NCBI GenBank assembly: GCA_963840935.1
Contig: CAWJAS010000001.1
Span: forward strand, 128,875 to 192,874
DNA: 64,000 nt
Reading direction: 5' to 3'
Source of the DNA: Candidatus Magasanikiibacteriota bacterium
GTDB lineage: Bacteria; Patescibacteriota; Patescibacteriia; Magasanikbacterales; GWA2-37-8
The translations under genes and the position numbers were made by a program. The first letter of the stretch is position 1; the number at the start of each line of letters is the position of its first letter. Below the pieces are notes generated by a model. The model did no database searches. It was not told the origin of the DNA and saw nothing but the letters and a program-made list of their open reading frames with translations. Below are positions 8,378-54,134 of this stretch, in pieces.

Positions 8378-9523
8378 TTATTTTTTAATATATATTCTCC
8401 CATCTCCTTTATCTACGGTAAATGAATGGTGTTTGAGTCCGGTTGTGATGTCTTCCATTTCTTCTTCAAAATTCACAATGACGTTCGCATAAGGAGCGCT
8501 CACAACAATGCCTTTTTCGAATTCTCTAAAATAAGCATTGTTTTTTTGATAATATTTGCCTTTGGGGTCGCCCAAGTCGGCGTCATATTCCGGGAACCAC
8601 CATGCCTGCCCATGGTCGCGGGGTCCAAAATCATAAGTAAAATAAGTATTATCGTTAAGCAGACTCAAAGTCAAACCAAGCCTCATTTTCTTTAGATCTT
8701 TTTGGCCGGTGTCGTCGGTGTCAACGGCATAAATAATAAAATGACTGTCGTCAGATGCTTTTAAACCGTCATCAAAATTTGCTTTTAATTGATTACCCAA
8801 TAAATTTTCCATCAAATAACCGTCAAAATATTCTTTGAACTCATCAATGTCATAAATATCTTTGCCGGCGTTGAAAACAACTAATTTATTATTGGTATTG
8901 AGCTGTTTTATTTTTGCAAAAATATTTTTTGTCGTGTCTAGCCATTCGTCATTACTGATTGATTCGGGACACCACCATTGTTTTTCCGTAATCATATCGA
9001 CAATAATTCCATCGTGTTGCGGTTGTTTTAGAACGTTGTCGTAGAATGAAACTATAAGCTCAGTCCATTTTTTATTTCTTAAGTCCATCGCATAAATTTC
9101 TTCATGCCCCCATTTGTCAGAAGCCCATCCAAACGCGCATCGTTCACCGTTAGGCTTGTGTAAATACATGTCTTCCGTTATTTCAATTGGTTTTTTTTTA
9201 TCATAATTTGCAACAGTCGTAAGAAATGACATCCAATCTTTATTATCCCATGTCCAATTTACAGATAATCCGGCCAAAAGTTTAGCTTCAGGATTGGTTG
9301 TTTTAATTTCATCCGCCTCTTCTTGCGTGAACCATCCGGACATAACAAGCGAATATGGTTTTTTGCTCGATATTATTTCCTCTTTTTTTGCTAACCAACT
9401 GGCAATTTTGGGGAAGTCAGCTTTTTTTGCCTCTGGCGATTGAGTTTGTTCTTGTTCGCATCCACATAAAAAAAATACTCCAATAATCGTCCATGTTAAA
9501 AATATTTTTTTTATTTTGGTCAT
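8378..9523 (-). CDS. Putative lipoprotein, unknown function
   Basis: Signal peptide with lipobox-like FLCGC. Trp/Asp-rich body. No confident family call. Confidence 0.5.
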   Translation of the reverse strand: MTKIKKIFLTWTIIGVFFLCGCEQEQTQSPEAKKADFPKIASWLAKKEEIISSKKPYSLVMSGWFTQEEADEIKTTNPEAKLLAGLSVNWTWDNKDWMSFLTTVANYDKKKPIEITEDMYLHKPNGERCAFGWASDKWGHEEIYAMDLRNKKWTELIVSFYDNVLKQPQHDGIIVDMITEKQWWCPESISNDEWLDTTKNIFAKIKQLNTNNKLVVFNAGKDIYDIDEFKEYFDGYLMENLLGNQLKANFDDGLKASDDSHFIIYAVDTDDTGQKDLKKMRLGLTLSLLNDNTYFTYDFGPRDHGQAWWFPEYDADLGDPKGKYYQKNNAYFREFEKGIVVSAPYANVIVNFEEEMEDITTGLKHHSFTVDKGDGRIYIKK

Positions 9524-12164: not shown

Positions 12165-12252
12165 AATTTCGTACAACGTATCGGCATATCTGATGTTGCG
12201 TAATAATATTGGCGAAACGTAGTGTAGCTAGATATACGCTGTTATCGGATAT
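12165..12252. repeat. attC-like cassette-boundary repeat
   Basis: aatttCGTACAACGtatcggcatatctgatgttgcg...GATATACGCTGTTATCGGATAT. Ends ~12 bp before the stop of the 12269-12760 gene. Confidence 0.55.
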
Positions 12253-14145: not shown

Positions 14146-14414
14146 AAAAATTTTAAAAAAGAGCTTAATTCAAATTGTCAAAATTATTTGTTTGGCAAAA
14201 TTGCGAATAACAGTCAGGAATATCCGATGTTTTTGCGACCAACGGAAGCAAAAATATGGGTGAGATAATTTTTTATTCCTTATTATAATTTATATTGAAA
14301 AATTATTGAACCAGATATTCCTTGTTATCTGATGTAAATTTTTATCTTCGTCTTTGATGAACTTAATCTTGTTTTCGCACTAAAAATTTTTGTTTTGCCG
14401 AATGGCAAAACAGA

Positions 14415-15191: not shown

Positions 15192-15283
15192 CTTTGACGG
15201 AAAACTTATAAAAAAACAAATTTTCGTCCTCGTTCAACGCACCAGAGCCTGAAATTATTACAAAGATAAAAATTTATTTCACA

Positions 15284-15348
15284 TAATGGGTCGCGGTTAT
15301 CCCATCGTCCCGCCCGGGCACGAACCTCATATTCGGTGTTGTACGATG
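15284..15348. repeat. attC-like cassette-boundary repeat, deletion variant lacking the right inner arm
   Basis: cataATGGGTCGCGGTTATCCCATCGTCCCGCCCGGGCACGAACCTCATATTCGG|TGTTGTACGATGT. Ends at the stop of the 15349-15762 gene. Confidence 0.7.
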
Positions 15349-15762
15349 TTAAATAATTTTTTTCAAATCACCATTAATAATAATCGGCTTAACTGCCTCA
15401 ATTTCAGTTTTACAATAAGGCATTTCGGGAATTGGGTTTAGCATGAAAACCTTTTGATTTAACACGTAGGCAAAACCGATTTCCATTAAAGTATTGCCGC
15501 CTACATAATTTTGGACGCCATTTTTATCAAGATTCAAAACAAGCACGGCATCTGCTCCTTGCATCATACGCCAAAATTCACGGATGGCGTCCATATTGTA
15601 TTTTTGGTGAAGTTTGATTTCTTCAATTTCGGAATCGGTTTTGCCCACCATTGCCTTATGCAAATCCGTGACAAATGCGTCATGCCCCAATTCCCGAAGT
15701 TTTTCACGATACTCAAGCATTTTATCGGTAAATTGCATTGAGCCGATTATTCCTATTTTCAT
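15349..15762 (-). CDS. Nucleoside 2-deoxyribosyltransferase-like protein
   Basis: MKIGIIGSMQFTDKMLEYREKLRELGHDAF...LVLNLD. Flavodoxin-like pattern. Confidence 0.45.
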   Translation of the reverse strand: MKIGIIGSMQFTDKMLEYREKLRELGHDAFVTDLHKAMVGKTDSEIEEIKLHQKYNMDAIREFWRMMQGADAVLVLNLDKNGVQNYVGGNTLMEIGFAYVLNQKVFMLNPIPEMPYCKTEIEAVKPIIINGDLKKII

Positions 15763-15789
15763 AAAAGATTTGAAAAAAATTATTTAATT

Positions 15790-15955
15790 TCGTACAATGG
15801 GTCGCGGTTATCCCATCGTCCCGCCCGGGCACGAACCTCATGTTCGGGCGGGATGTGGGATAACCGCTGTTATGCGATGTCGCGCGAGCAACTCGCAGAA
15901 CAGCGGGCACCGCGACCCATTATGCAAAATCGCTCACGCGATTTTGCATAATGTT
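15790..15955. repeat. Full-length attC-like palindrome plus additional nested hairpins; gene-less cassette-like segment
   Basis: cgtacaATGGGTCGCGGTTATCCCATCGTCCCGCCCGGGCACGAACCTCATGTTCGGGCGGGATGTGGGATAACCGCTGTTATGCGATGT. Then GCGCGAGcaaCTCGC, an inverted copy CCGCGACCCATT, and a perfect hairpin ATGCAAAATCGCtcacGCGATTTTGCAT. Confidence 0.7.
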
Positions 15956-16315
15956 TTTGGACATGCGAAGTTAAAAAACCCCGCCACCTTGACTTAATTG
16001 TATCAAAAAGAGCGGGGTTTTTCAATTTGGGAGGGGGCTTTCGAGGAAAGCCCGAACCGCATGTCCAGTGTTATGTGATTTATACTTTTCCTTTTATCCG
16101 TTAGGGTCGCTTTTCTATTTTAGGGCAAATTTGGTTTTGTCTTTCTTTGAGCTGAGAGGTTGGAGCGGATGCCCAAAAGTAAAGACGCATTATTGGAAGT
16201 TAGTAAGAAAAACGTCCGAAATTGAAGAAGGGGTCGCAACATCTGTTGCGACCCCTTTGGGGTTTTGCTGGCCTCCCGAGTTTCCTCAGCTTGCCAGACG
16301 GCGTAGCCGATCTCG

Positions 16316-16753
16316 TCACTCCACGACGGTCGTTTGACCGCGGCCAAACTTGCCATGGTTCCAGCCCGCACCGTTGATGTCAGTCACGGAGTGAACGTGT
16401 ATGGAGAGCAATTGGTCGAAGGCTTGGTCTGTATCGGGGTTCCCCGTGCGGTACTCGATCCACATGGGCTGGCCGACCGGCACATCATGAAAGGTCTCTG
16501 GAATATTGCCGTAACACCCTTGTCCGAAGGAATACTGAGCGACAGTGCCATCCGGCTTCTCCATGAGAAAGGTGTAACGCGACGGTTCGTGCATCAGGAC
16601 GCGAGAAACACCATCCATGCGCTTGGTCTCGGTCCAATCTATTGCACCAAGGGTCCGGTAGACGAAGGCCATGAGACCTAAGGACACAACCAGGAGAATG
16701 GAGACGGACAGGATGATCAAAGGAACATGAAACTTTTCCCTAATACGCTTCAT
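16316..16753 (-). CDS. Hypothetical N-terminally membrane-anchored protein; visibly GC-rich relative to flanks
   Basis: N-terminal TM segment. Codons are G/C-ending. Two consecutive hairpins downstream at ~16228-16262. Confidence 0.5.
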   Translation of the reverse strand: MKRIREKFHVPLIILSVSILLVVSLGLMAFVYRTLGAIDWTETKRMDGVSRVLMHEPSRYTFLMEKPDGTVAQYSFGQGCYGNIPETFHDVPVGQPMWIEYRTGNPDTDQAFDQLLSIHVHSVTDINGAGWNHGKFGRGQTTVVE

Positions 16754-16989: not shown

Positions 16990-17101
16990 AAAAGTGTATT
17001 TCACATAACGTTTCGGGATATCCGACGTTTCGCCACTTCCATTAAAAAATAATTTAGTGTGGCGAAATGTGGCTTTAGCCCTTGCGGATATCCCGTGTTG
17101 T
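16990..17101. repeat. attC-like imperfect palindrome with perfect CGGATATCCG palindromic boxes
   Basis: cacataACGTTTCGGGATATCCGACGTTTCGCCAC...GTGGCGAAATG...GCGGATATCCCGTGTTGTGCGAC. Ends ~30 bp before the stop of the 17133-17690 gene. Confidence 0.7.
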
Positions 17102-17132
17102 GCGACCCGAAGGGCTTGAGTTGCAAAAACTT

Positions 17133-17690
17133 TTATTCCTTATTTTTGTTTTGATTTCTATTAAAAATAGCCATGGATAAAAAGTCATAAAACTTTCCTT
17201 TGTAAAAAACTTCATCTTTCATCTTGCCTTCGATAACAAAGCCTAAAGATTTATACAAGTTAACTGCTGGAGTATTATCTTTGATGACGCCTAAATTAAT
17301 CTTATGAAGTTTTTGTTTTGTAAATCCATAATCGATTATCCATTCCATGGCAATTTTTCCAATTCCCTTACCGCGATAGTCGTCTTCTCCAATAGCAATA
17401 AACAAATCTGCATTTTTATTCGGTTTACTAATGTTTGATAGTCCTATAAATCCTATTGGCTTAGAATTATCACAAATAGTGAAAAACTTTTTGTTTTTAG
17501 CTTTTTTATAATTAGCAAACCATTCCTTTTCTTTTTGCAGATTTGTTTTTTGCCCCAATTCATCACCAATAAACTTATTGACATTGGGATTGCTCAACCA
17601 CTTGACGCGGCAAGGGATATCTTTTTCTAAATGTTTTCTTATTTTTATCATAAAGAAATCAAAACAAATTAAATTTAAAAGTTTTTGCAA
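17133..17690 (-). CDS. GNAT family N-acetyltransferase (RimJ/RimL-like); first cassette next to the recombinase remnant
   Basis: KVKWLSNPNV, DYRGKGIGKIAMEWIIDYGF, LYKSLGF. Confidence 0.75.
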   Translation of the reverse strand: MQKLLNLICFDFFMIKIRKHLEKDIPCRVKWLSNPNVNKFIGDELGQKTNLQKEKEWFANYKKAKNKKFFTICDNSKPIGFIGLSNISKPNKNADLFIAIGEDDYRGKGIGKIAMEWIIDYGFTKQKLHKINLGVIKDNTPAVNLYKSLGFVIEGKMKDEVFYKGKFYDFLSMAIFNRNQNKNKE

Positions 17691-17877
17691 TTTCGCACAA
17701 CTACCTTTATCATGACTAGTGGTAAAAACCGCTAAAATATGATAAAATTTTTGAGAAATTGGGGTTATAGGCGACGAAGGTGAGAGAAAAGCAAATTGAT
17801 TTGCTTTTCCGAGCCAAGGAGCTTATATACTGTGTATATAGCCCCTGGGGGTATAACGGATTAATATTATCAAGAAT

Positions 17878-18311
17878 TATGAAGGAGGGCAACACTTTTG
17901 ATAATTTGGCTAGGGAATTGCGTATTCGCAATTACAGCAAAAAAACCGCTAATTCATATATTCGGTATAATCAGGAGTTTTTGCGGTTTTGCGAAAAAGA
18001 CCCGCGTGAAGCAACGGCCGAGGATATAAAGAATTATTTGGATTATTTAGCTCAAGAATGGTCGTGGAAGCAGATTAACCGAATCAACTATACAAAAAAT
18101 CGTGGTTTCAACAGCCAAAAAAGCGGGGATTGCCAAAAATGTGACACCGCATACCTTGCGCCATTCGTTTGCCACGCATTTGCTAGAAAATGGCACGGAT
18201 ATACGGTATATTCAAGAATTGTTGGGGCATGCCAAGCTTCAGACCACCCAAATCTACACTCATGTGGCAAATAATAATTTAAAAAATATTGTGAGCCCGC
18301 TCGATGTATGA
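17878..18311 (+). pseudogene. intI-like: Integron-integrase-like tyrosine recombinase remnant: N-terminal SAM-like domain fused out of frame to the C-terminal catalytic tail; ~180 codons of the central domain are missing
   Basis: N-terminal part [61 protein letters not shown] parallels IntI1 [30 protein letters not shown]...EVEAFLSWLANE. After a frame change near 18050, [61 protein letters not shown]...VSPLDV matches the IntI/Xer C-terminus, including the HxxR and catalytic Tyr regions and the SPLD ending. Confidence 0.7.
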
Positions 18312-18430
18312 ATGGGCGTGGTTGGATTCCCGCTTTCGCGAGAATGACAAGACGATAATTATTGTTGACAAAAAACTTTCTATAAGATTAAATAGGTTCA
18401 ACAAACCGTTCTTTTAACCAGGAGAAAAAA

Positions 18431-18652
18431 ATGAAGTACGCAGTGTCGTATCGATTGCTTACGCATGACAGCGATGGCCCGATACCGGAAAGCAGGGAAT
18501 ACGAGGCGGAAAGTCTGAAAGAGGCATACGCCAAAGGAGAAAGGATAGCTCAAGACCGCGCTGCCCAAATCAGGAAGGATGGCGGAGTCGCCGAGGTGTC
18601 GAACATCCACATCAAGCGGTTTCACAAGCGCGCCTCAAAAAAATCCCGATAG
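18431..18652 (+). CDS. Small hypothetical protein (73 aa), GC-rich, with strong RBS
   Basis: aggagaaaaaaATG. Terminator at 18683-18715 (AGCCGCCAGCCGTGGCGGCTTTT). Confidence 0.4.
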   Translation: MKYAVSYRLLTHDSDGPIPESREYEAESLKEAYAKGERIAQDRAAQIRKDGGVAEVSNIHIKRFHKRASKKSR

Positions 18653-18749
18653 TTCTTACGATATCTGACCCCTATACTGTACAATCAAGCCGCCAGCCGT
18701 GGCGGCTTTTGCTTTCTTAAAAACAGTATGATACGATTTTATAAAATAT

Positions 18750-19211
18750 ATGAAAGAAAAATTTGTTTTGGTTTTGCCTGATATCAGAAGCGCGCATAAT
18801 GTGGGCGCTATGTTTCGGACCGCGGATGGCGCGGGTGTAGAAAAAATATATTTATGCGGATATACCGCTCGTCCGCCTCATCCGCAATTAGACAAAGTAT
18901 CTTTGGGCGCTGAAAAATGGATAAAATGGGAATATTACCGTCAAACATGGCGCGCGCTTAAAGAATTGAAGAAAAAAGGGTATAATATAGTGGCGCTGGA
19001 ATTAACCGAAGGCAGTCAAAATATTTTTAAGTGGAAGTCAAAGTTTCCTTTGGCCTTGGTGGTTGGCAATGAAAAAACCGGCGTGACAAAAAAATTATTA
19101 AAATATTGTGATAGTGCCGTTCACATCCCCATGTTCGGCAAAAAAAGCAGTTTGAATGTTAGTGTGGCCACCGGCATTGCCGTTTATCAAATTGGCCAAC
19201 AAATAAAATAA
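18750..19211 (+). CDS. SpoU/TrmH-family RNA 2-prime-O-methyltransferase (TrmL-like)
   Basis: HNVGAMFRTADGAG, VVGNEKTGV, SLNVSVATGIAVY SPOUT motifs. Confidence 0.8.
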   Translation: MKEKFVLVLPDIRSAHNVGAMFRTADGAGVEKIYLCGYTARPPHPQLDKVSLGAEKWIKWEYYRQTWRALKELKKKGYNIVALELTEGSQNIFKWKSKFPLALVVGNEKTGVTKKLLKYCDSAVHIPMFGKKSSLNVSVATGIAVYQIGQQIK

Positions 19212-37949: not shown

Positions 37950-38405
37950 ATGAATATGCAATTACGAAAAAAAACTGATAAAAATGTCCTTACTGTTCTT
38001 GGTGTCCTCAATGATGAAATTCATGGTGATGCGCGATCTGCCATGAACAAGTTGACCAAAGATTACACAATGACTTGGATATATCGCCATCCAAAAAACG
38101 GAAAACTTTTTCCTCGTACAAAAAAAGATATAAAGGCCGGCCTTAAAAAAGTCTACCCAACCAAAGGGAGGCATTATGATATAAAAAATATCGCCACGGG
38201 GAATAACGTTGTTATAGTGGAATTGGTGGAGAGCTACCCCGATCCAAAAACCAAAAAAGTGTACCGAACGCCGTTAGTTTTGGTGCTTGAGATGAAAAAA
38301 GGAAAAATTCAAACGGGTCGCCATTATTGTGACCCGAATTTGTCGTATCTTCATTTAACAAAAAAACAAGTGGCGAATGCTTACGTCAAAACAAGAAAAG
38401 TGTGA
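37950..38405 (+). CDS. Hypothetical protein (possibly NTF2-like fold)
   Basis: 151 aa, basic. No confident family. Confidence 0.4.
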   Translation: MNMQLRKKTDKNVLTVLGVLNDEIHGDARSAMNKLTKDYTMTWIYRHPKNGKLFPRTKKDIKAGLKKVYPTKGRHYDIKNIATGNNVVIVELVESYPDPKTKKVYRTPLVLVLEMKKGKIQTGRHYCDPNLSYLHLTKKQVANAYVKTRKV

Positions 38406-38518
38406 GTGTTTTGAGTAATTTTAAATATTTTATATAAAAATTCTCGGCTTCGGGCTGCGAGCTTTTTGTTTTGAAAGTGCCACCACAGTATTTAATCGCG
38501 AAATTCTTAACAAATATT

Positions 38519-38545
38519 AAAGAGGCGTCGGGTGACGCCTCTTTG
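38519..38545. repeat. Hairpin AAGAGGCGtcgggtgaCGCCTCTTT, left boundary of the GC-rich island; direct copy of the hairpin at 39792-39822
   Basis: Compare AAAGAGGCGTCGGGTGACGCCTCTTT with AAAGAGGCGCCACGAGGCGCCTTT. Confidence 0.6.
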
Positions 38546-38576
38546 GGATGGAATGATCTGGGATGAAAAGAGCGGG

Positions 38577-39662
38577 CTACTCGCCGTTCGCGGCGATGGC
38601 GGCTTCGACCTCCTCGGCCGAAACCACCGACTCCTGGCGACCGACGAGGCGGCGCGTGCGCTTGCCGCTATTCACGTGGTCGAGGAGCAGGGTGTAGAGG
38701 ATCTTGTGCGCCGTACCGCCCGCGCTGGCCAGGTTGCGTACCTGCGGGTCGTTGATCGGGAATTGGGCGATCTTGCGCGCCAGATCCCTTTCGATGTAGA
38801 GGCGCTTGTCCCGCCAGAAGGTGGTGTGGCGCGAGAGCAGGAGCGCCAGGCACATCAGGAAGGTGAGGCGCAGGTGCGTCGCGCCCTCTTTGAAGGTGAC
38901 GACCCTGATGCCCCAGGCCTTGTCGACCAGGTCGAAGAAGGTCCTGATGTTCTCGCGCAGGATGTTGCGCCCGACGCGGTTGTGGATCACTTCGATGCCA
39001 CGACCGAGTTCCCGCCAGCCGTTGCTGAGACCGGGACCGACATGCGAGTGCAGGGCGCCGATGACCTTGGCGAAGGACACGGCGCTGATCAGCTGCTCGC
39101 GCGTCTGGCGCTGGCACCAGGATACGCGGTTGACGAGCACGAAGTCCGGGTCGAAGAGCGTCAGGTTGTAGATCGTCTCGATGGCTGGGATGTCCGCCCG
39201 CATGTTGCGCAGGAGGATGTTCGAGTTGACCTTGGTCCGGTCGGCGTTGAGGATGCGGAAGCGCTCGCGCTCCCACTCCTCGTTGGAGTTGAAGTGCACC
39301 GTGGCTCCGAGCCGGGGTTTGGCGTCCTCGTAGCGGCGCATCATCTCGCGGGCCGCGGTTACCCGTTGGAGCCCGTCGATGATGTAGACGTCGTTCGGCA
39401 GGACGAAGACGCCCGGCTCGCGCTCGCGGAAGTTCCCTCCCCGGGCCCCGAGATCGATGTCGGGAATGGGGTCGCCCTTGACCATCGCGTCGATAATCTC
39501 GTTGATGGTCTGAATGGGGAGAACCTCGCGCTGGTACTCGGCCTGCTTGAACAGACCGAAGGAGTCCGGATCGATCACCCCGCGTAGGATGATCGTGCCT
39601 CCGGACACCTCGTCCAGTGCTCCGTGGTACAGCTTCACACAGTCCCTGTCCTTGTTGCCCAT
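38577..39662 (-). CDS. ParB/sulfiredoxin-fold DGQHR/DndB-like (DUF262-like) domain protein, GC-rich foreign gene
   Basis: VYIIDGLQRVTAARE core resembling the DGQHR/DGQQR motif of DndB/DUF262 ParB-like nuclease domains. ~360 aa as in DndB. Start taken at MGNKDRD with RBS aaaggagcccaacATG. The plus-strand ORF 38532-39587 is the antisense shadow. Confidence 0.5.
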   Translation of the reverse strand: MGNKDRDCVKLYHGALDEVSGGTIILRGVIDPDSFGLFKQAEYQREVLPIQTINEIIDAMVKGDPIPDIDLGARGGNFREREPGVFVLPNDVYIIDGLQRVTAAREMMRRYEDAKPRLGATVHFNSNEEWERERFRILNADRTKVNSNILLRNMRADIPAIETIYNLTLFDPDFVLVNRVSWCQRQTREQLISAVSFAKVIGALHSHVGPGLSNGWRELGRGIEVIHNRVGRNILRENIRTFFDLVDKAWGIRVVTFKEGATHLRLTFLMCLALLLSRHTTFWRDKRLYIERDLARKIAQFPINDPQVRNLASAGGTAHKILYTLLLDHVNSGKRTRRLVGRQESVVSAEEVEAAIAANGE

Positions 39663-39791
39663 GTTGGGCTCCTTTCTTGTGCGGGGTATGGCTCCCGAAG
39701 GATAGCTACCCGCACATGTTGTAAGAAACGCGTTCAAAGTAACACATTTTGCGCTTTTTGTCAAGACACCAGGAGCCGACGTCGGTTTGTA

Positions 39792-39822
39792 TAAAAAGAG
39801 GCGCCACGAGGCGCCTTTACGT
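39792..39822. repeat. Hairpin AAAGAGGCGccacgagGCGCCTTT, right boundary of the GC-rich island; also acts as the minus-strand terminator for the 39837-40190 gene
   Basis: See 38519-38545. Confidence 0.6.
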
Positions 39823-39836
39823 ATTTTTAATGATTT

Positions 39837-40190
39837 TTATGTCATTTTTTTAAATCTTACGGTGAAAATGGGCTCGAATTTATTGTTATATTCATCGGTT
39901 ATTTCCACGCTTTCACCTTTCATTAATTTGGTCATGGCCGCGTCCGACAAAAGCATGCTATCGGATTTAATATCAAGCGCGTATTCTTCCATTTTTTCCA
40001 ATTCACCGGAAAAATCCGCTCTGATGGCCGCTTCAATTTGCTGCTTTTTTATTCTTGATGCTTTTATTTTGTCGAGAATTTCCTGATACTCGGCCGATGA
40101 CATTAAAGCTTCTTTGAGGGCGCTTCTGATATCTTTTTGTTTCTTTTTTGTTTCTTGCAGGCGGTTGTAAACTTCTTGGAGATTGGCCAT
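39837..40190 (-). CDS. Hypothetical charged protein
   Basis: 117 aa. No motif recognised. Confidence 0.45.
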   Translation of the reverse strand: MANLQEVYNRLQETKKKQKDIRSALKEALMSSAEYQEILDKIKASRIKKQQIEAAIRADFSGELEKMEEYALDIKSDSMLLSDAAMTKLMKGESVEITDEYNNKFEPIFTVRFKKMT

Positions 40191-42372: not shown

Positions 42373-42438
42373 TTTCGCTCGCTCTAGGGGTAGCCCCGAG
42401 ATAAACTCGGGGCGCTAAAGCGGATTCGAATAATTTTG

Positions 42439-42511
42439 CTCTAGGGGCAGGACTCGAACCTGCAACTACTTCGTTAACAGCGAAGCGTTCTACCAATTGA
42501 ACTACCCTAGA
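42439..42511 (-). tRNA. tRNA-Asn (anticodon GUU)
   Basis: Reverse complement folds as a cloverleaf. Acceptor TCTAGGG/CCCTAGA. D-arm GTTCaattggtaGAAC. Anticodon stem CTTCG/CGAAG with loop CTGTTAA. T-arm GCAGGttcgagtCCTGC. No encoded CCA. Confidence 0.85.
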
Positions 42512-51950: not shown

Positions 51951-52562
51951 ATGTCGAAACCGTTGGAGGAAGTGAAGAAACTGACCATTGGCCAGCTGGC
52001 CGCGCTCGTGCACGCCATCGGCGGGCTTGTCGCGGTCAAGGCAATTCTTCGTGACAAGGGTCTGGCCAAACGGGTGGCCGAGTTCATCTGTAATGACGAG
52101 AAGGGAATCGTTAAAGTTGTCGGCATGTTCACGGCATTCGTGGATTACGCCAACCCGTCGTACCAAGAGCTCAAGTCGGCCTTCGATTGGGTCGATGACT
52201 GGTATGATCGGGCGATGTTCAAGACAATCGACATCTGTAAATCGGTTAGTCGTGAGCCCTGTGTAGTGGGGTTCGTCTACGTCCATATGGACCGCACCGC
52301 TTCCAGTAATGAGGTTTACGCCACGATGGAGACACGTGGATTGCGTCCGGCACTATACGAGGAACTCCTGGCGTTCGCCAAGGCCTACCCTGACGAGCAG
52401 AGGAAGTTTCATATTATCGCTCTTGGATCTTTCTGTGTGGGTGTGAGCGGTGGTCGCTACGTGGCGTACCTCAGCGATGTTGGCTATGGTCGTCGCCTGC
52501 GCCTGGATTTTTTTGAGCACGACTGGTTTGACAATTGCCGTTTTCTCGCTGTCAGCAAGTAA
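51951..52562 (+). CDS. GC-rich hypothetical protein B (paralog family)
   Basis: RBS ggaggagagcaATG. C-terminal block SDVGYGRRLRLDFFEHDWFDNCRFLAV. Confidence 0.55.
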   Translation: MSKPLEEVKKLTIGQLAALVHAIGGLVAVKAILRDKGLAKRVAEFICNDEKGIVKVVGMFTAFVDYANPSYQELKSAFDWVDDWYDRAMFKTIDICKSVSREPCVVGFVYVHMDRTASSNEVYATMETRGLRPALYEELLAFAKAYPDEQRKFHIIALGSFCVGVSGGRYVAYLSDVGYGRRLRLDFFEHDWFDNCRFLAVSK

Positions 52563-52600
52563 CGGTCATTGGCAACTTGGCTACTTGGTTCTTTCGTTTA

Positions 52601-52650
52601 CTTTTGGGCCCTTGGTACTTTGGTACCTTGGGCCCTTTTTTATTTTAAGT
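52601..52650 (+). terminator. Terminator hairpin GGGCCCTTGGTACtttGGTACCTTGGGCCC plus T-run; repeated at 53940-53990
   Basis: Same sequence follows gene C (gggtccttggtactttggtatcttgggccctttttt). Confidence 0.7.
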
Positions 52651-52729
52651 TATCTCTAAATATTAATTGCAAATAAAAAAGGACCCACTTTACCCCGGGT
52701 CCAATAGGGTCTGTGCCTTTTTGGAACAC

Positions 52730-52830
52730 TGTTGGTCGCGAGATGCGATGCTGGTTTGTGTTCGCATGCGACACATTTTTGGTCGCCACGACATTTGGTC
52801 GCAGTGCGACAACACGTTGTTCCTTAGGCG
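52730..52830. repeat. Cluster of 3-4 direct iteron-like repeats TTGGTCGC-N-CGACA
   Basis: ttggtcgcgagatgcgatg / tgttcgcatgcgacaca / ttggtcgccacgaca / ttggtcgcagtgcgacaaca. Confidence 0.55.
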
Positions 52831-53034
52831 GTCCTTCGCACGCCGGTTTGGTTTCGCGCTAGGTCTGCCGGCTCATCATGACGTGCCTGCCTCCTTCTCT
52901 GTATTGGTTAGAGGTTTTTGGAATCTGAATAAAATGATAACATATTTTTTTGCAGATTGACAAGAGTTTCAAAATGTAATATGTTATTTTGTTAAATAGC
53001 GTTCTTTTTTATATCTCGGTTTTCTTTGGGCCAA

Positions 53035-53100
53035 TATCATTGTCATTCCCGCGAAGGCGGGAATCTGAGAAACGTGGATCCCCGATCAGGTCGGGGATGA
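53035..53100. repeat. Inverted pair of TGTCAT(T/C)CCCG boxes, each with its own hairpin; related box TGTCATTCCGATCGG at 50302-50316
   Basis: TGTCATTCCCGCGAAGGCGGGAATC ... GATCCCCGATCAGGTCGGGGATGACA. Confidence 0.55.
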
Positions 53101-53195
53101 CAGTTGTTGATCAAAAGAAGACCGGGATACAAAACCGGCATCCTTTCGGCCAGTTTGGTCGGAAGTATTTCCCACTTTGGGAAAGGAGAACGCAA

Positions 53196-53906
53196 ATGAA
53201 CAGAAAAGTGTCGTTCAATGCCATTGCCCGTTTTATGGTGGAGCTTTCGGACGAGGAACAGCGGGCGATAGTGGAGAATCCCGGGCTCGTTCGGTTTTTT
53301 TTGGCTGATTTGGCCCGCGAGAAGGAGGATAACACCTTCTTCACCCACATCGCCGACAAGGACGCCCCGGCGCATCTCATAGACACGGTCGCCAAGTGGC
53401 GCAAGCTCGCGAGCGACATGGGCTACACCGGTCCGGTGCTCTGGCTGGTCAAAGCCGGCTTCACCCTGAAGAAGCATGCCCCGCTCGCTGGTCCCTGCTA
53501 CGAACAGTTCAAGTACCTGCAGGACTGGATCTTTCAGAACTACGAACCTACGGTCGACTCTACGGTGTTCTTCGTCCCTCGCATCATCGCGACGGGGAAG
53601 GACGCCGAGGAGCAGAAGCAGGTTCTCTCCAAGCTTCGCGCGAAGTACAAACTGTCGGCAAACCACTGCGACTCGTTCGGTTCGGTCGCACTCATCAGCG
53701 GTCTCATACTCGCGCACTTCAAGCGTACGGGCGAGCGCGCCCCTCTCAACGACGAGTGGGTGCGCACCAACACCTTCGACTCGGTCGGCGACCGGCTCTA
53801 CCTCGGCGGCTTCAACGAGTATGGGCTCAGCTGCGGCCGCCACTGGAGTGTCATCAGCCGTGGCCGACTCGGGGCTTTCCCGCTGGGGATCGAGTCGCTC
53901 GTCTAG
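53196..53906 (+). CDS. GC-rich hypothetical protein C (paralog family)
   Basis: RBS gaaaggagaacgcaaATG. C-terminal block DSVGDRLYLGGFNEYGLSCGRHWSV. Minus-strand ORF 53043-54056 is its antisense shadow. Confidence 0.55.
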   Translation: MNRKVSFNAIARFMVELSDEEQRAIVENPGLVRFFLADLAREKEDNTFFTHIADKDAPAHLIDTVAKWRKLASDMGYTGPVLWLVKAGFTLKKHAPLAGPCYEQFKYLQDWIFQNYEPTVDSTVFFVPRIIATGKDAEEQKQVLSKLRAKYKLSANHCDSFGSVALISGLILAHFKRTGERAPLNDEWVRTNTFDSVGDRLYLGGFNEYGLSCGRHWSVISRGRLGAFPLGIESLV

Positions 53907-53939
53907 GCCGATTTGCTCTTTCATCATCTTTTGCCTGTC

Positions 53940-53990
53940 GGCAGGCAAGCTTGGGTCCTTGGTACTTTGGTATCTTGGGCCCTTTTTTAT
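53940..53990 (+). terminator. Second copy of the GGTACTTTGGTA-type terminator hairpin
   Basis: GGGTCCTTGGTACTTTGGTATCTTGGGCCCTTTTTTATT. Confidence 0.7.
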
Positions 53991-54134
53991 TCCCTTGACA
54001 AACTCCGCCTCATCATATATCCTATTCACGAACGTTAAAACTTTGCCTTGGCCCATCTAACCAAGGCAAAGAGTAAACCTTTAGCAAAAATCGTGGCTGA
54101 TTTTAACAAAGGTCAGCTTTTTTATTTAAAAATT

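Follow-up and report, generated by a model that had tools for sequence, protein, structure and literature searches.

A 64-kb stretch of a Candidatus Magasanikbacteria genome (candidate phyla radiation, CPR; Patescibacteria), called here the window and the reference for all window coordinates, carries a tyrosine recombinase gene that is preserved as two pieces in different reading frames. The gene is transcribed away from an attI-like site, on the far side of which small genes lie on the opposite strand, separated from one another by imperfect hairpins. The original prediction for this locus had been of a broken tyrosine recombinase in two frames; Pfam matches to both pieces and a 96.5% identity to an intact gene bear this out.

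The recombinase remnant and its intact relatives

The remnant comprises two pieces that overlap at a deletion junction:

17879-18064, + strand: N-terminal remnant, the ATG and codons 1-62 (MKEGNTF...DYLAQEWS); Pfam PF13495; aligned with 25 full-length relatives
18057-18311, + strand: C-terminal remnant, the last 84 codons (NGRGSRLTE...VSPLDV) and the stop, shifted +1 relative to the N-terminal piece; Pfam PF00589
18057-18064, + strand: deletion junction, the lone retained copy of the 8-bp direct repeat AATGGTCG, where the N- and C-terminal frames overlap

The N-terminal piece matched PF13495 (Phage_int_SAM_4) at window positions 17882-18070 (+; E 1.3e-12; profile positions 2-59 of 85), in keeping with the resemblance to the IntI N-terminal domain that had been proposed for it. 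It covers the first two thirds of the SAM-like core-binding domain, and past 18064 its frame runs on as nonsense up to a stop at 18274. The C-terminal piece, in the other frame, matched PF00589 (Phage_integrase) at 18102-18308 (+; E 4.6e-21; profile positions 117-170 of 172), and its start was traced back to 18057 by extending this second frame upstream. The expected C-terminal motifs and the ending VSPLDV are present; the catalytic HxxR, H, and Y are kept in this piece, whereas the first Arg and the Lys fell in the deleted part. In a search of solved structures (PDB), the C-terminal piece matched the C-termini of IntI4, XerA, and XerD. A tblastn search found no second copy of either piece within the 64-kb window.

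The window pieces alone did not discriminate between the IntI and Xer families. As a family query we used a chimeric reconstruction, in which the N- and C-terminal pieces came from the window and the middle from P0001/P0014. Full-length relatives are 273-aa Candidatus Magasanikbacteria proteins with the NCBI name "site-specific tyrosine recombinase/integron integrase", and they are 63-79% identical to the chimera. The intact relatives retrieved in this way match both PF13495 and PF00589 and have the full catalytic set: R (in LRVSE), K (in GKGKKDR), HtlR, LLGH, and IYTH. The database also contains many internally deleted relatives (P0001, P0003, P0004, P0007, P0018, P0019, and P0037), with the N domain fused to HTLRHSFAT or with a gap at another place; the family seems to lose internal segments repeatedly. 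A family of mini-recombinases, based on short or internally deleted matches to the concatenated pieces, was considered and rejected as a product of scoring bias toward gapless matches.

The closest full-length relative lies on a 7.6-kb contig (L002), which is 97.7% identical to the window from spoU through the thioredoxin-reductase gene and carries an intact 273-aa recombinase (P0121). In the alignment of 25 full-length relatives, P0121 matches both window pieces closely. The 822-nt L002 gene contains AATGGTCG at positions 290 and 679, a spacing of 389 nt. Taking 389 nt away leaves 433 nt, the exact length of window 17879-18311, and the two sequences are then 96.5% identical (15 mismatches in 433 nt), a likeness that is, on this comparison, far beyond chance. 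With blastn, the same relationship appeared as two overlapping blocks, window 17837-18064 against L002 70-297 (96.5% nucleotide identity) and window 18041-18312 against L002 664-934 (95.6%). The retained repeat is read as gAA TGG TCG (E W S) in the N-terminal frame and as AAT GGT CGt (N G R) in the C-terminal frame. Hence, one 389-bp deletion between 8-bp direct repeats explains both the missing segment and the +1 change of frame. To judge from the junction, the loss would have come about by replication slippage or by microhomology-mediated illegitimate recombination. A codon similarity between two DYL stretches (DYL...DYL) had been considered as the deletion site and was dropped; the exact junction is the AATGGTCG repeat further 3'.

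The overlap of the frames at 18057-18064 agrees with a frame change that had been placed at about 18050, but the deletion is smaller than the ~180 codons first proposed: 389 bp, or ~130 codons, from an ancestor of 273 aa that was not IntI-sized. It removed residues 63-189 of 273. With them went the part of the core-binding domain beyond residue 62 and two catalytic residues, the Arg in LRVSE and the Lys in GKGKKDR, each of which is conserved in 90% or more of the full-length relatives (n=25). Because these residues are lost and the frame is shifted, no active recombinase can be made from the window copy in any frame, and the earlier inference of an inactive gene without its catalytic core stands, with HxxR, H, and Y remaining. 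The term "fossil", in turn, made the gene out to be older than it is: the remnant and the gene of the live relative still agree at all but 3.5% of positions (15/433), and on this measure the inactivation is recent.

The attI-like site, the cassettes, and the neighboring genes

The following features lie upstream of the start codon:

17837-17878, + strand: right half of the leader, CCCCTGGGGGTATAACGG... up to the start codon, with the 3' arm of the leader hairpin
17771-17836, + strand: 66-nt leader insertion with TATAG repeats at its borders, unaligned in blastn against L002 and a gap in 13/13 other loci (alignment A2)
17699-17770, - strand (cassette strand): attI-like region, ending ...CTATAACCCCAATTTCTCAAAAATTTTATCATATTTTAGCGGTTTTTACCACTAGTCATGATAAAGGTA G|TT, from the alignment of 14 loci
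17009-17700, - strand: cassette 1, starting TTGTGCGAAAT, with a GNAT acetyltransferase open reading frame (ORF) at 17133-17690 (Pfam Acetyltransf_3 and Acetyltransf_1) and ending in an attC-like site

We aligned the upstream regions of 14 loci (the window and 13 others). All are conserved from the start codon to an invariant AAC|TACC..T (AAC|TACCTTTAT, + strand), which on the cassette strand reads ...ATGATAAAGGTA G|TT. Past G|TT the sequences are unrelated among the 14 loci, save for a loose GTTRTRCGAAAT box. Two metagenome contigs (L083 and L084) have the same attI-like region joined to different cassettes, and the L002 contig ends 5 nt beyond the G|TT junction. In the window, the crossover point and first cassette boundary lie at 17701|17700, 178 nt from the ATG with the 66-nt insertion included. 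The first cassette is divergent from the gene, as had been predicted, but the distance of 187 bp then given is replaced by this boundary. The sequence GTTATAGGCGACG (17765-17777), formerly taken for a possible attI vestige, is present but is made up of a conserved GTTATAG, an arm of the leader hairpin, and the first bases of the 66-nt insertion.

An extended -10-like sequence lies within the attI-like region as a candidate promoter element. A sigma-70 promoter scan around the locus returned 4 sites against 2.8 +/- 1.5 in shuffled sequences, no better than chance, and we therefore claim no Pc promoter. Contigs of many relatives (L006, L009, L011, L012, L014-L017, L022, L024, L029, and others) end ~0-250 nt upstream of the recombinase gene, which suggests assembly breakage at a variable cassette array.

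The leader hairpin (TTATAGCC..loop..GGGTATAA) lies between the promoter region and the start codon, ~25 nt before the latter. In 11 loci (L002-L012, alignment A5) it is 85% paired, with compensatory changes at 5/8 pairs; examples of compensated arms are TCACAGA/TCTGTGA in L055 and TTATAGAC/GTCTATAA in L010. GTTATAG, on the 17765-17770 side in the window, is its 5' arm, and the 66-nt insertion splits the hairpin. This leader stem may have a regulatory role as RNA, or it may belong to the attI-like site. Within the insertion is a 10-bp hairpin (GAAAAGCAAA/TTTGCTTTTC); a search of the window and of 82 loci turned up no further copy of the insertion.

Between 17.7 and 10.4 kb, the minus-strand ORFs of the window are separated by imperfect-hairpin elements of 80-150 nt with the form ACATC-RNNYAAC-A-[11-bp stem]-variable part-[stem]-NNNN-[G/A]TTRTNNGAAAT. 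A stem-requiring scan supplied 19 seed sites, drawn from 14 sources, namely the window and 13 loci. Their inner stem is 95% paired, or 87% when counted by cells, against 22-43% paired in slid controls, and 9/11 of its pairs are changed on both sides. AAC and TT are invariant among the seeds, the loops vary, and total site length ranges from 82 to 153 nt. The spacers show a conserved asymmetry of 1 nt versus 4 nt, which gives no strand choice; an early assignment of the + strand as the top strand, made from this asymmetry, was dropped. The orientation of the ORFs, the orientation of the recombinase gene, and the cassette rule described below together identify the minus strand as the cassette strand.

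A covariance model (R1) built from the 19 seeds found seven sites in the window, all on the minus strand between 10458 and 17108, and none elsewhere in the 64 kb. The sites are listed with their R1 scores and, for the first five, the complementarity of each site to the start of its own cassette:

16998-17108, - strand: attC-like site 1, 51.9 bits (E 4.5e-11); complementarity 5/5
15941-16081, - strand: attC-like site 2, 52.9 bits; complementarity 5/5
15787-15880, - strand: attC-like site 3, 55 bits; complementarity 4/5; after a 61-nt ORF-less mini-cassette
15276-15349, - strand: attC-like site 4, 29.1 bits; complementarity 5/5; degenerate, with the 5' arm of the inner stem missing
14200-14335, - strand: attC-like site 5, 48 bits; complementarity 4/5
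12166-12252, - strand: attC-like site 6, 33.2 bits
10458-10550, - strand: attC-like site 7, 44.1 bits

Among 80 related loci, R1 gave 47 matches at E <= 0.05, many of which are not seeds. All but two of these (45/47) lie on the strand opposite to the recombinase gene with coordinates upstream of the gene start, and arrays with this layout occur in 20/80 loci. The two exceptions (L051 2018-2140 and L041 9416-9563, both +) are on the same strand as the recombinase gene and downstream of it; they belong to one Bacillota and one Spirochaetota locus, with a layout the reverse of that in the CPR loci. With filters off, R1 scored long-loop sites poorly, and the default search recovered them. A plain scan for AAC...GTT stems proved too noisy, with about equal matches on both strands, and became useful once the conserved flanks were added.

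If a circle is cut after the first base of GTT, the R'' box of a site should pair with the TTNNNNN with which its own cassette begins, and not with the adjacent box. At site 1, the R'' box CGCACAAC is fully complementary to GTTGTGCG at the junction of the attI-like region and cassette 1 (5/5 variable positions). Over 40 consecutive-site pairs, the own-cassette match was 4.0/5 variable bases, with 19/40 perfect, compared to 2.6/5 for the adjacent box and 2.69/5 for random pairs. Set directly against the adjacent box, the own-cassette match won 29 times, lost 5, and tied 6 (n=40). Cassettes 1-5 of the window scored 5, 5, 4, 5, and 4 of 5. We regard complementarity of this kind as a sequence signature of integron-type cassette excision and insertion.

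Several observations concern individual cassettes and sites. An ORF-less mini-cassette of ~60-85 nt (window 15945-15881, -) occurs also in L004, L006, and L017, with a similarly short site spacing in L052. At its beginning is a perfect hairpin, which in the window reads TTATGCAAAATCGC-GTGA-GCGATTTTGCATAA. Arrays of different genomes share this conserved mini-cassette, and in several of them it is the first unit beside the attI-like site. Cassette 2 (16316-16753, -) has a GC content of 0.48, against ~0.33 in its neighbors, and is preceded by a perfect sigma-70-type promoter (TTGACA-17 nt-TATAAT at 16835-16807, -) that lies within the cassette. A GHL15-family gene is common to the window (8378-9523) and L003 (6339-7430) at 74% nucleotide identity; in L003 it follows an attC-like site, and it may be an old shared cassette or mark the distal border of the array. 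Some sites look decayed: 11762-11645 combines two site types in a hybrid, only a 5' half is present at 12835-12800, and further degenerate or truncated sites, with a recurring motif CATTCGGCNACAT, lie at about 10150-10100 and about 13400-13360. Degenerate sites of this kind are consistent with decay in an array with a dead integrase.

Downstream of the gene, the order in L001 and L002 is recombinase-SpoU-241aa-DJ1/PfpI...PfkB-93aa-TrxR-Rpe-RpiB (TrxR, thioredoxin reductase). The window has the same ORF order and sizes, with SpoU confirmed by Pfam, and its gene is the syntenic orthologue of the conserved Magasanikbacteria recombinase with spoU downstream. In L001 and L002, spoU overlaps the recombinase stop codon, whereas in the window ~440 nt (18313-18752) lie between the two. 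This insertion contains a 73-aa ORF (18431-18652) without a Pfam match, a TTGACA-type promoter-like sequence seen by eye that the sigma-70 scan did not return, and a strong terminator-like hairpin at 18687-18708. No other copies of it were found, except for a ~26-nt palindromic repeat at its start (GGATTCCCGCTTTCGCGAGAATGACA-like; window 18323-18350 and 53040-53065). Repeats of this type also occur in many CPR loci (L014 1205, L021 8888, L029 1116/9011/9053, L045, L024, L038, and L043), in several of them shortly past the recombinase stop codon, and may be repetitive extragenic palindromic (REP)-like or terminator-like. Elsewhere in the window we noted GC-rich islands at 38001-40000 and 52001-54000 (GC 0.50-0.565 against a background of ~0.40) and a tRNA-Asn gene at 42438-42511 (-).

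The nature of the enzyme and competing explanations

We conclude, with good though not complete confidence, that what survives at this locus is the recombinase gene, now inactivated, of an integron-type gene-cassette platform on the chromosome of Candidatus Magasanikbacteria. The gene had been predicted to sit where intI should be, and the conserved attI-like junction, the seven attC-like sites, and the cassette-boundary rule agree with that placement. In relatives, the 273-aa recombinase gene is transcribed away from a conserved attI-like site, with an array of small genes beyond. Like IntI at attC and attI, its product would excise cassettes as circles and integrate them with the crossover falling directly behind the first base of the [G/A]TT box. 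To the 389-bp loss in the window lineage we add two other lesions, the 66-nt insertion that splits the leader hairpin and the ~440-nt insertion that parts the gene from spoU. The adjacent array would now be frozen, like a cluster of attC sites without an integrase, unless another recombinase acts in trans. The pseudogene itself is an ordinary decay event with an unusually clean mechanism.

To place the enzyme in a family, we used the curated NCBIfam cut-offs, which are 220 bits for XerA_Arch (NF040815) and 265 bits for the integron integrase (TIGR02249). Intact relatives passed the XerA_Arch cut-off in a single stretch (P0129 at 244.8 bits and P0121 at 253 bits), and the XerD and XerC models gave about 200-205 bits. 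XerC or XerD as best matches, with a full-length gene recovered on assembly correction, had been named as grounds against an integron integrase; the best matches found are of the XerA/IntI type. The sequence of XerA (5HXY) aligned contiguously to an intact relative at 180 bits, whereas that of VchIntIA/IntI4 (2A3V) gave a split alignment at 177 bits, in which query residues 192-212 (21 aa) stand opposite IntI4 176-239 (64 aa). That IntI4 segment is the IntI-specific additional domain, which the query lacks. The C-terminal piece of the window itself spans the second half of the additional-domain position (NGRGS-RLTE) and has no insert there. TNGR|G-RLTE is the position at which IntI proteins carry part of this domain, and three relatives (P0219, P0180, and P0159) have unrelated insertions of 3-27 aa exactly there (alignment A1, columns 226-253). 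An AlphaFold2 model of P0129 (predicted local distance difference test score, pLDDT, 81) retrieved 2A3V first in Foldseek (E 3e-17, 35% identity) and XerA next. On these profile and alignment scores, the intact enzyme is formally XerA-like and not an IntI as currently defined. The label "integron-integrase-like" can be kept for the role and context of the gene, but not in the sense of a canonical IntI, given the lack of the additional domain and a score below the TIGR02249 cut-off.

Several points weigh against our interpretation. The TIGR02249 model scored P0129 at 244.7 bits and P0121 at 238.9 bits, each in two stretches and short of 265 bits, and the intact enzyme is without the ~43-aa IntI additional domain. 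Because that domain is needed for IntI activity by published criteria, the action of this enzyme on folded attC-like sites is unproven. We infer from conserved adjacency and from the footprints at cassette boundaries that the neighboring recombinase is the enzyme acting on the array. Part of the pairing in the seed sites is there by construction, since the scan that chose them required a stem, and Rfam, searched over 6.8-18.5 kb at gathering and relaxed thresholds, gave neither an attC-like nor any other meaningful match. The deletion allele occurs in one assembly only, its protein cluster (P0002) has a single member, and the junction had no exact match in metagenome contigs of the Joint Genome Institute (JGI) that would independently confirm it, so that an assembly or minority-variant origin is formally possible. 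An intact paralogue may also exist elsewhere in the genome, as the paralogue search covered the 64-kb window.

The formal likeness to XerA invites an alternative that we consider unlikely, namely that the gene is a pseudogene of the lineage's housekeeping Xer (a XerA-type chromosome-dimer resolvase), that its place beside a variable region is incidental, and that the modules are moved by some other enzyme or exploit Xer in the manner of integrative mobile elements exploiting Xer (IMEX) or dif modules. XerA_Arch scores of 245-253 bits in the intact relatives (cut-off 220) and the contiguous alignment to 5HXY, next to the split one to IntI4, would fit such an origin, and synteny is kept at 63-79% identity across Magasanikbacteria, as for a core gene. 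"Cand" tyrosine recombinases of candidate phyla have, moreover, been treated as Xer-related (Smyshlyaev et al. 2021, PMC8138268). A housekeeping role does not, however, lead one to expect a conserved site ending G|TT upstream of the start codon (178 nt off in the window), nor 45/47 site matches upstream of the gene and on the opposite strand. In place of 28-bp dif-like duplexes, the sites are long hairpins whose stems covary and whose ends are AAC and GTT, and the own-cassette complementarity that they follow is an integron signature. Loss of the gene in the window is also harder to reconcile with an essential Xer, although the two roles are not mutually exclusive.

More improbable still, in our view, is that the organism's real gene is intact and that the deletion reflects misassembly or a variant present in a minority. 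The finding of the allele in one assembly only would be explained in this way, and regions beside cassette arrays are prone to misassembly, as the many relatives' contigs that break just upstream of the gene illustrate. A 389-bp collapse across an 8-bp repeat is, however, unusual for assemblers, and the 770,905-nt contig runs unbroken through the locus. The two further lineage-specific changes there (the 66-nt and ~440-nt insertions) are consistent with real decay, and tyrosine recombinases with internal deletions are frequent among database proteins. We give hardly any credence to the idea that the split gene still makes a functional product, through programmed frameshifting or as two cooperating peptides: both pieces are open, the N-terminal frame is an annotated 164-aa ORF (P0002), and the C-terminal piece has a GTG-initiated ORF (18102-18311), but residues 63-189, including the Arg of LRVSE and the Lys of GKGKKDR, are gone in every frame. 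We know of no tyrosine recombinase that works without the catalytic Arg and Lys.

Implications and comparison with known systems

By itself, the pseudogene is of modest interest: a recombinase knocked out cleanly in one step, by a microhomology-mediated event, in a lineage that tolerates the loss of the gene. The larger point is its setting: among CPR relatives the intact gene adjoins a conserved attI-like site, a site that recurs in every one of the 14 aligned loci. We propose, tentatively and leaning slightly to the side of doubt, that Magasanikbacteria and neighboring CPR lineages (e.g., Falkowbacteria) carry a distinct class of chromosomal integron, with a compact 273-aa XerA-like integrase that lacks the additional domain. 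If so, integron-like gene capture would extend to ultra-small symbiotic bacteria, and the additional domain would be no universal requirement for integron-type cassette recombination. Such a platform might be missed, or labeled a cluster of attC sites lacking an integron integrase (CALIN), by detection rules that require this domain. The enzyme would be a minimal integrase for asking what the additional domain does. The window would be a natural knock-out of such a system and, paired with L002 (flanking genes ~97.7% identical), would offer a dead- and a live-integrase array for the study of array decay.

One archaeal integron survey (PMC9668308), citing Messier and Roy (2001), holds the IntI additional domain to be necessary for activity and a defining feature. 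Another study describes the insertion as "not fully conserved" in an integron-like subgroup and places candidate-phyla enzymes in a Xer-related "Cand" subgroup (Smyshlyaev et al., PMC8138268). Our literature search brought up no account of integrons from Magasanikbacteria or from any other CPR lineage, which is no proof of novelty; an enzyme without the domain used for definition and detection could explain why integrons go unreported there. It may also explain why attC arrays of archaea mostly come without a detectable IntI (6 IntIs for arrays in 75 genomes; PMC9668308).

Compared with IntI (VchIntIA/IntI4, 2A3V; TIGR02249), the Magasanikbacteria enzyme shares the SAM_4 N-terminal domain and the HTLRHSFAT...LLGH...IYTHV...SPLD C-terminal ending, and the best solved-structure match of the modeled intact relative is VchIntIA, at 35% identity. 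The gene is likewise divergent from an attI-like site that is followed by cassettes with imperfect hairpin sites and 5'-AAC...GTT-3' ends, and the crossover would likewise fall after the first base of the GTT box. The enzyme differs in length (273 aa versus about 320 aa) and in the additional-domain segment (21 aa versus 64 aa), and it scores below the TIGR02249 cut-off. The sites differ from integron attC in their R' consensus (GTTRTRYG versus GTTRRRY), in a conserved ACATC 5' flank, and in the 1-nt versus 4-nt asymmetric spacer.

XerA resolves chromosome dimers at dif, a short duplex site. No dif-like site was seen in the 64-kb window, although none was looked for. With the archaeal XerA enzymes (NF040815; 5HXY, 4A8E), the Magasanikbacteria enzyme has in common its length, its domain architecture, a contiguous alignment, and a score past the equivalog cut-off, but its gene goes together with an attI-like site and with structured cassette sites in an array.

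Inactivated intI genes are known in chromosomal integrons, for example in Xanthomonas. The window resembles sedentary chromosomal integrons and CALINs in that the array has a fixed chromosomal position, the integrase gene is vertically inherited and here inactivated, and some sites are degenerate; it differs in its CPR host and in an integrase type without the additional domain, and standard tools that require this domain might call even the intact relatives CALINs. Xer-dependent modules, such as IMEX and the pdif modules of Acinetobacter plasmids, are similar in having discrete gene modules between recombinase sites and a Xer-like enzyme. Their sites, however, are 28-bp dif-like duplexes, whereas those described here are covarying hairpins of 80-150 nt that lie in one orientation and follow an integron-type boundary rule.

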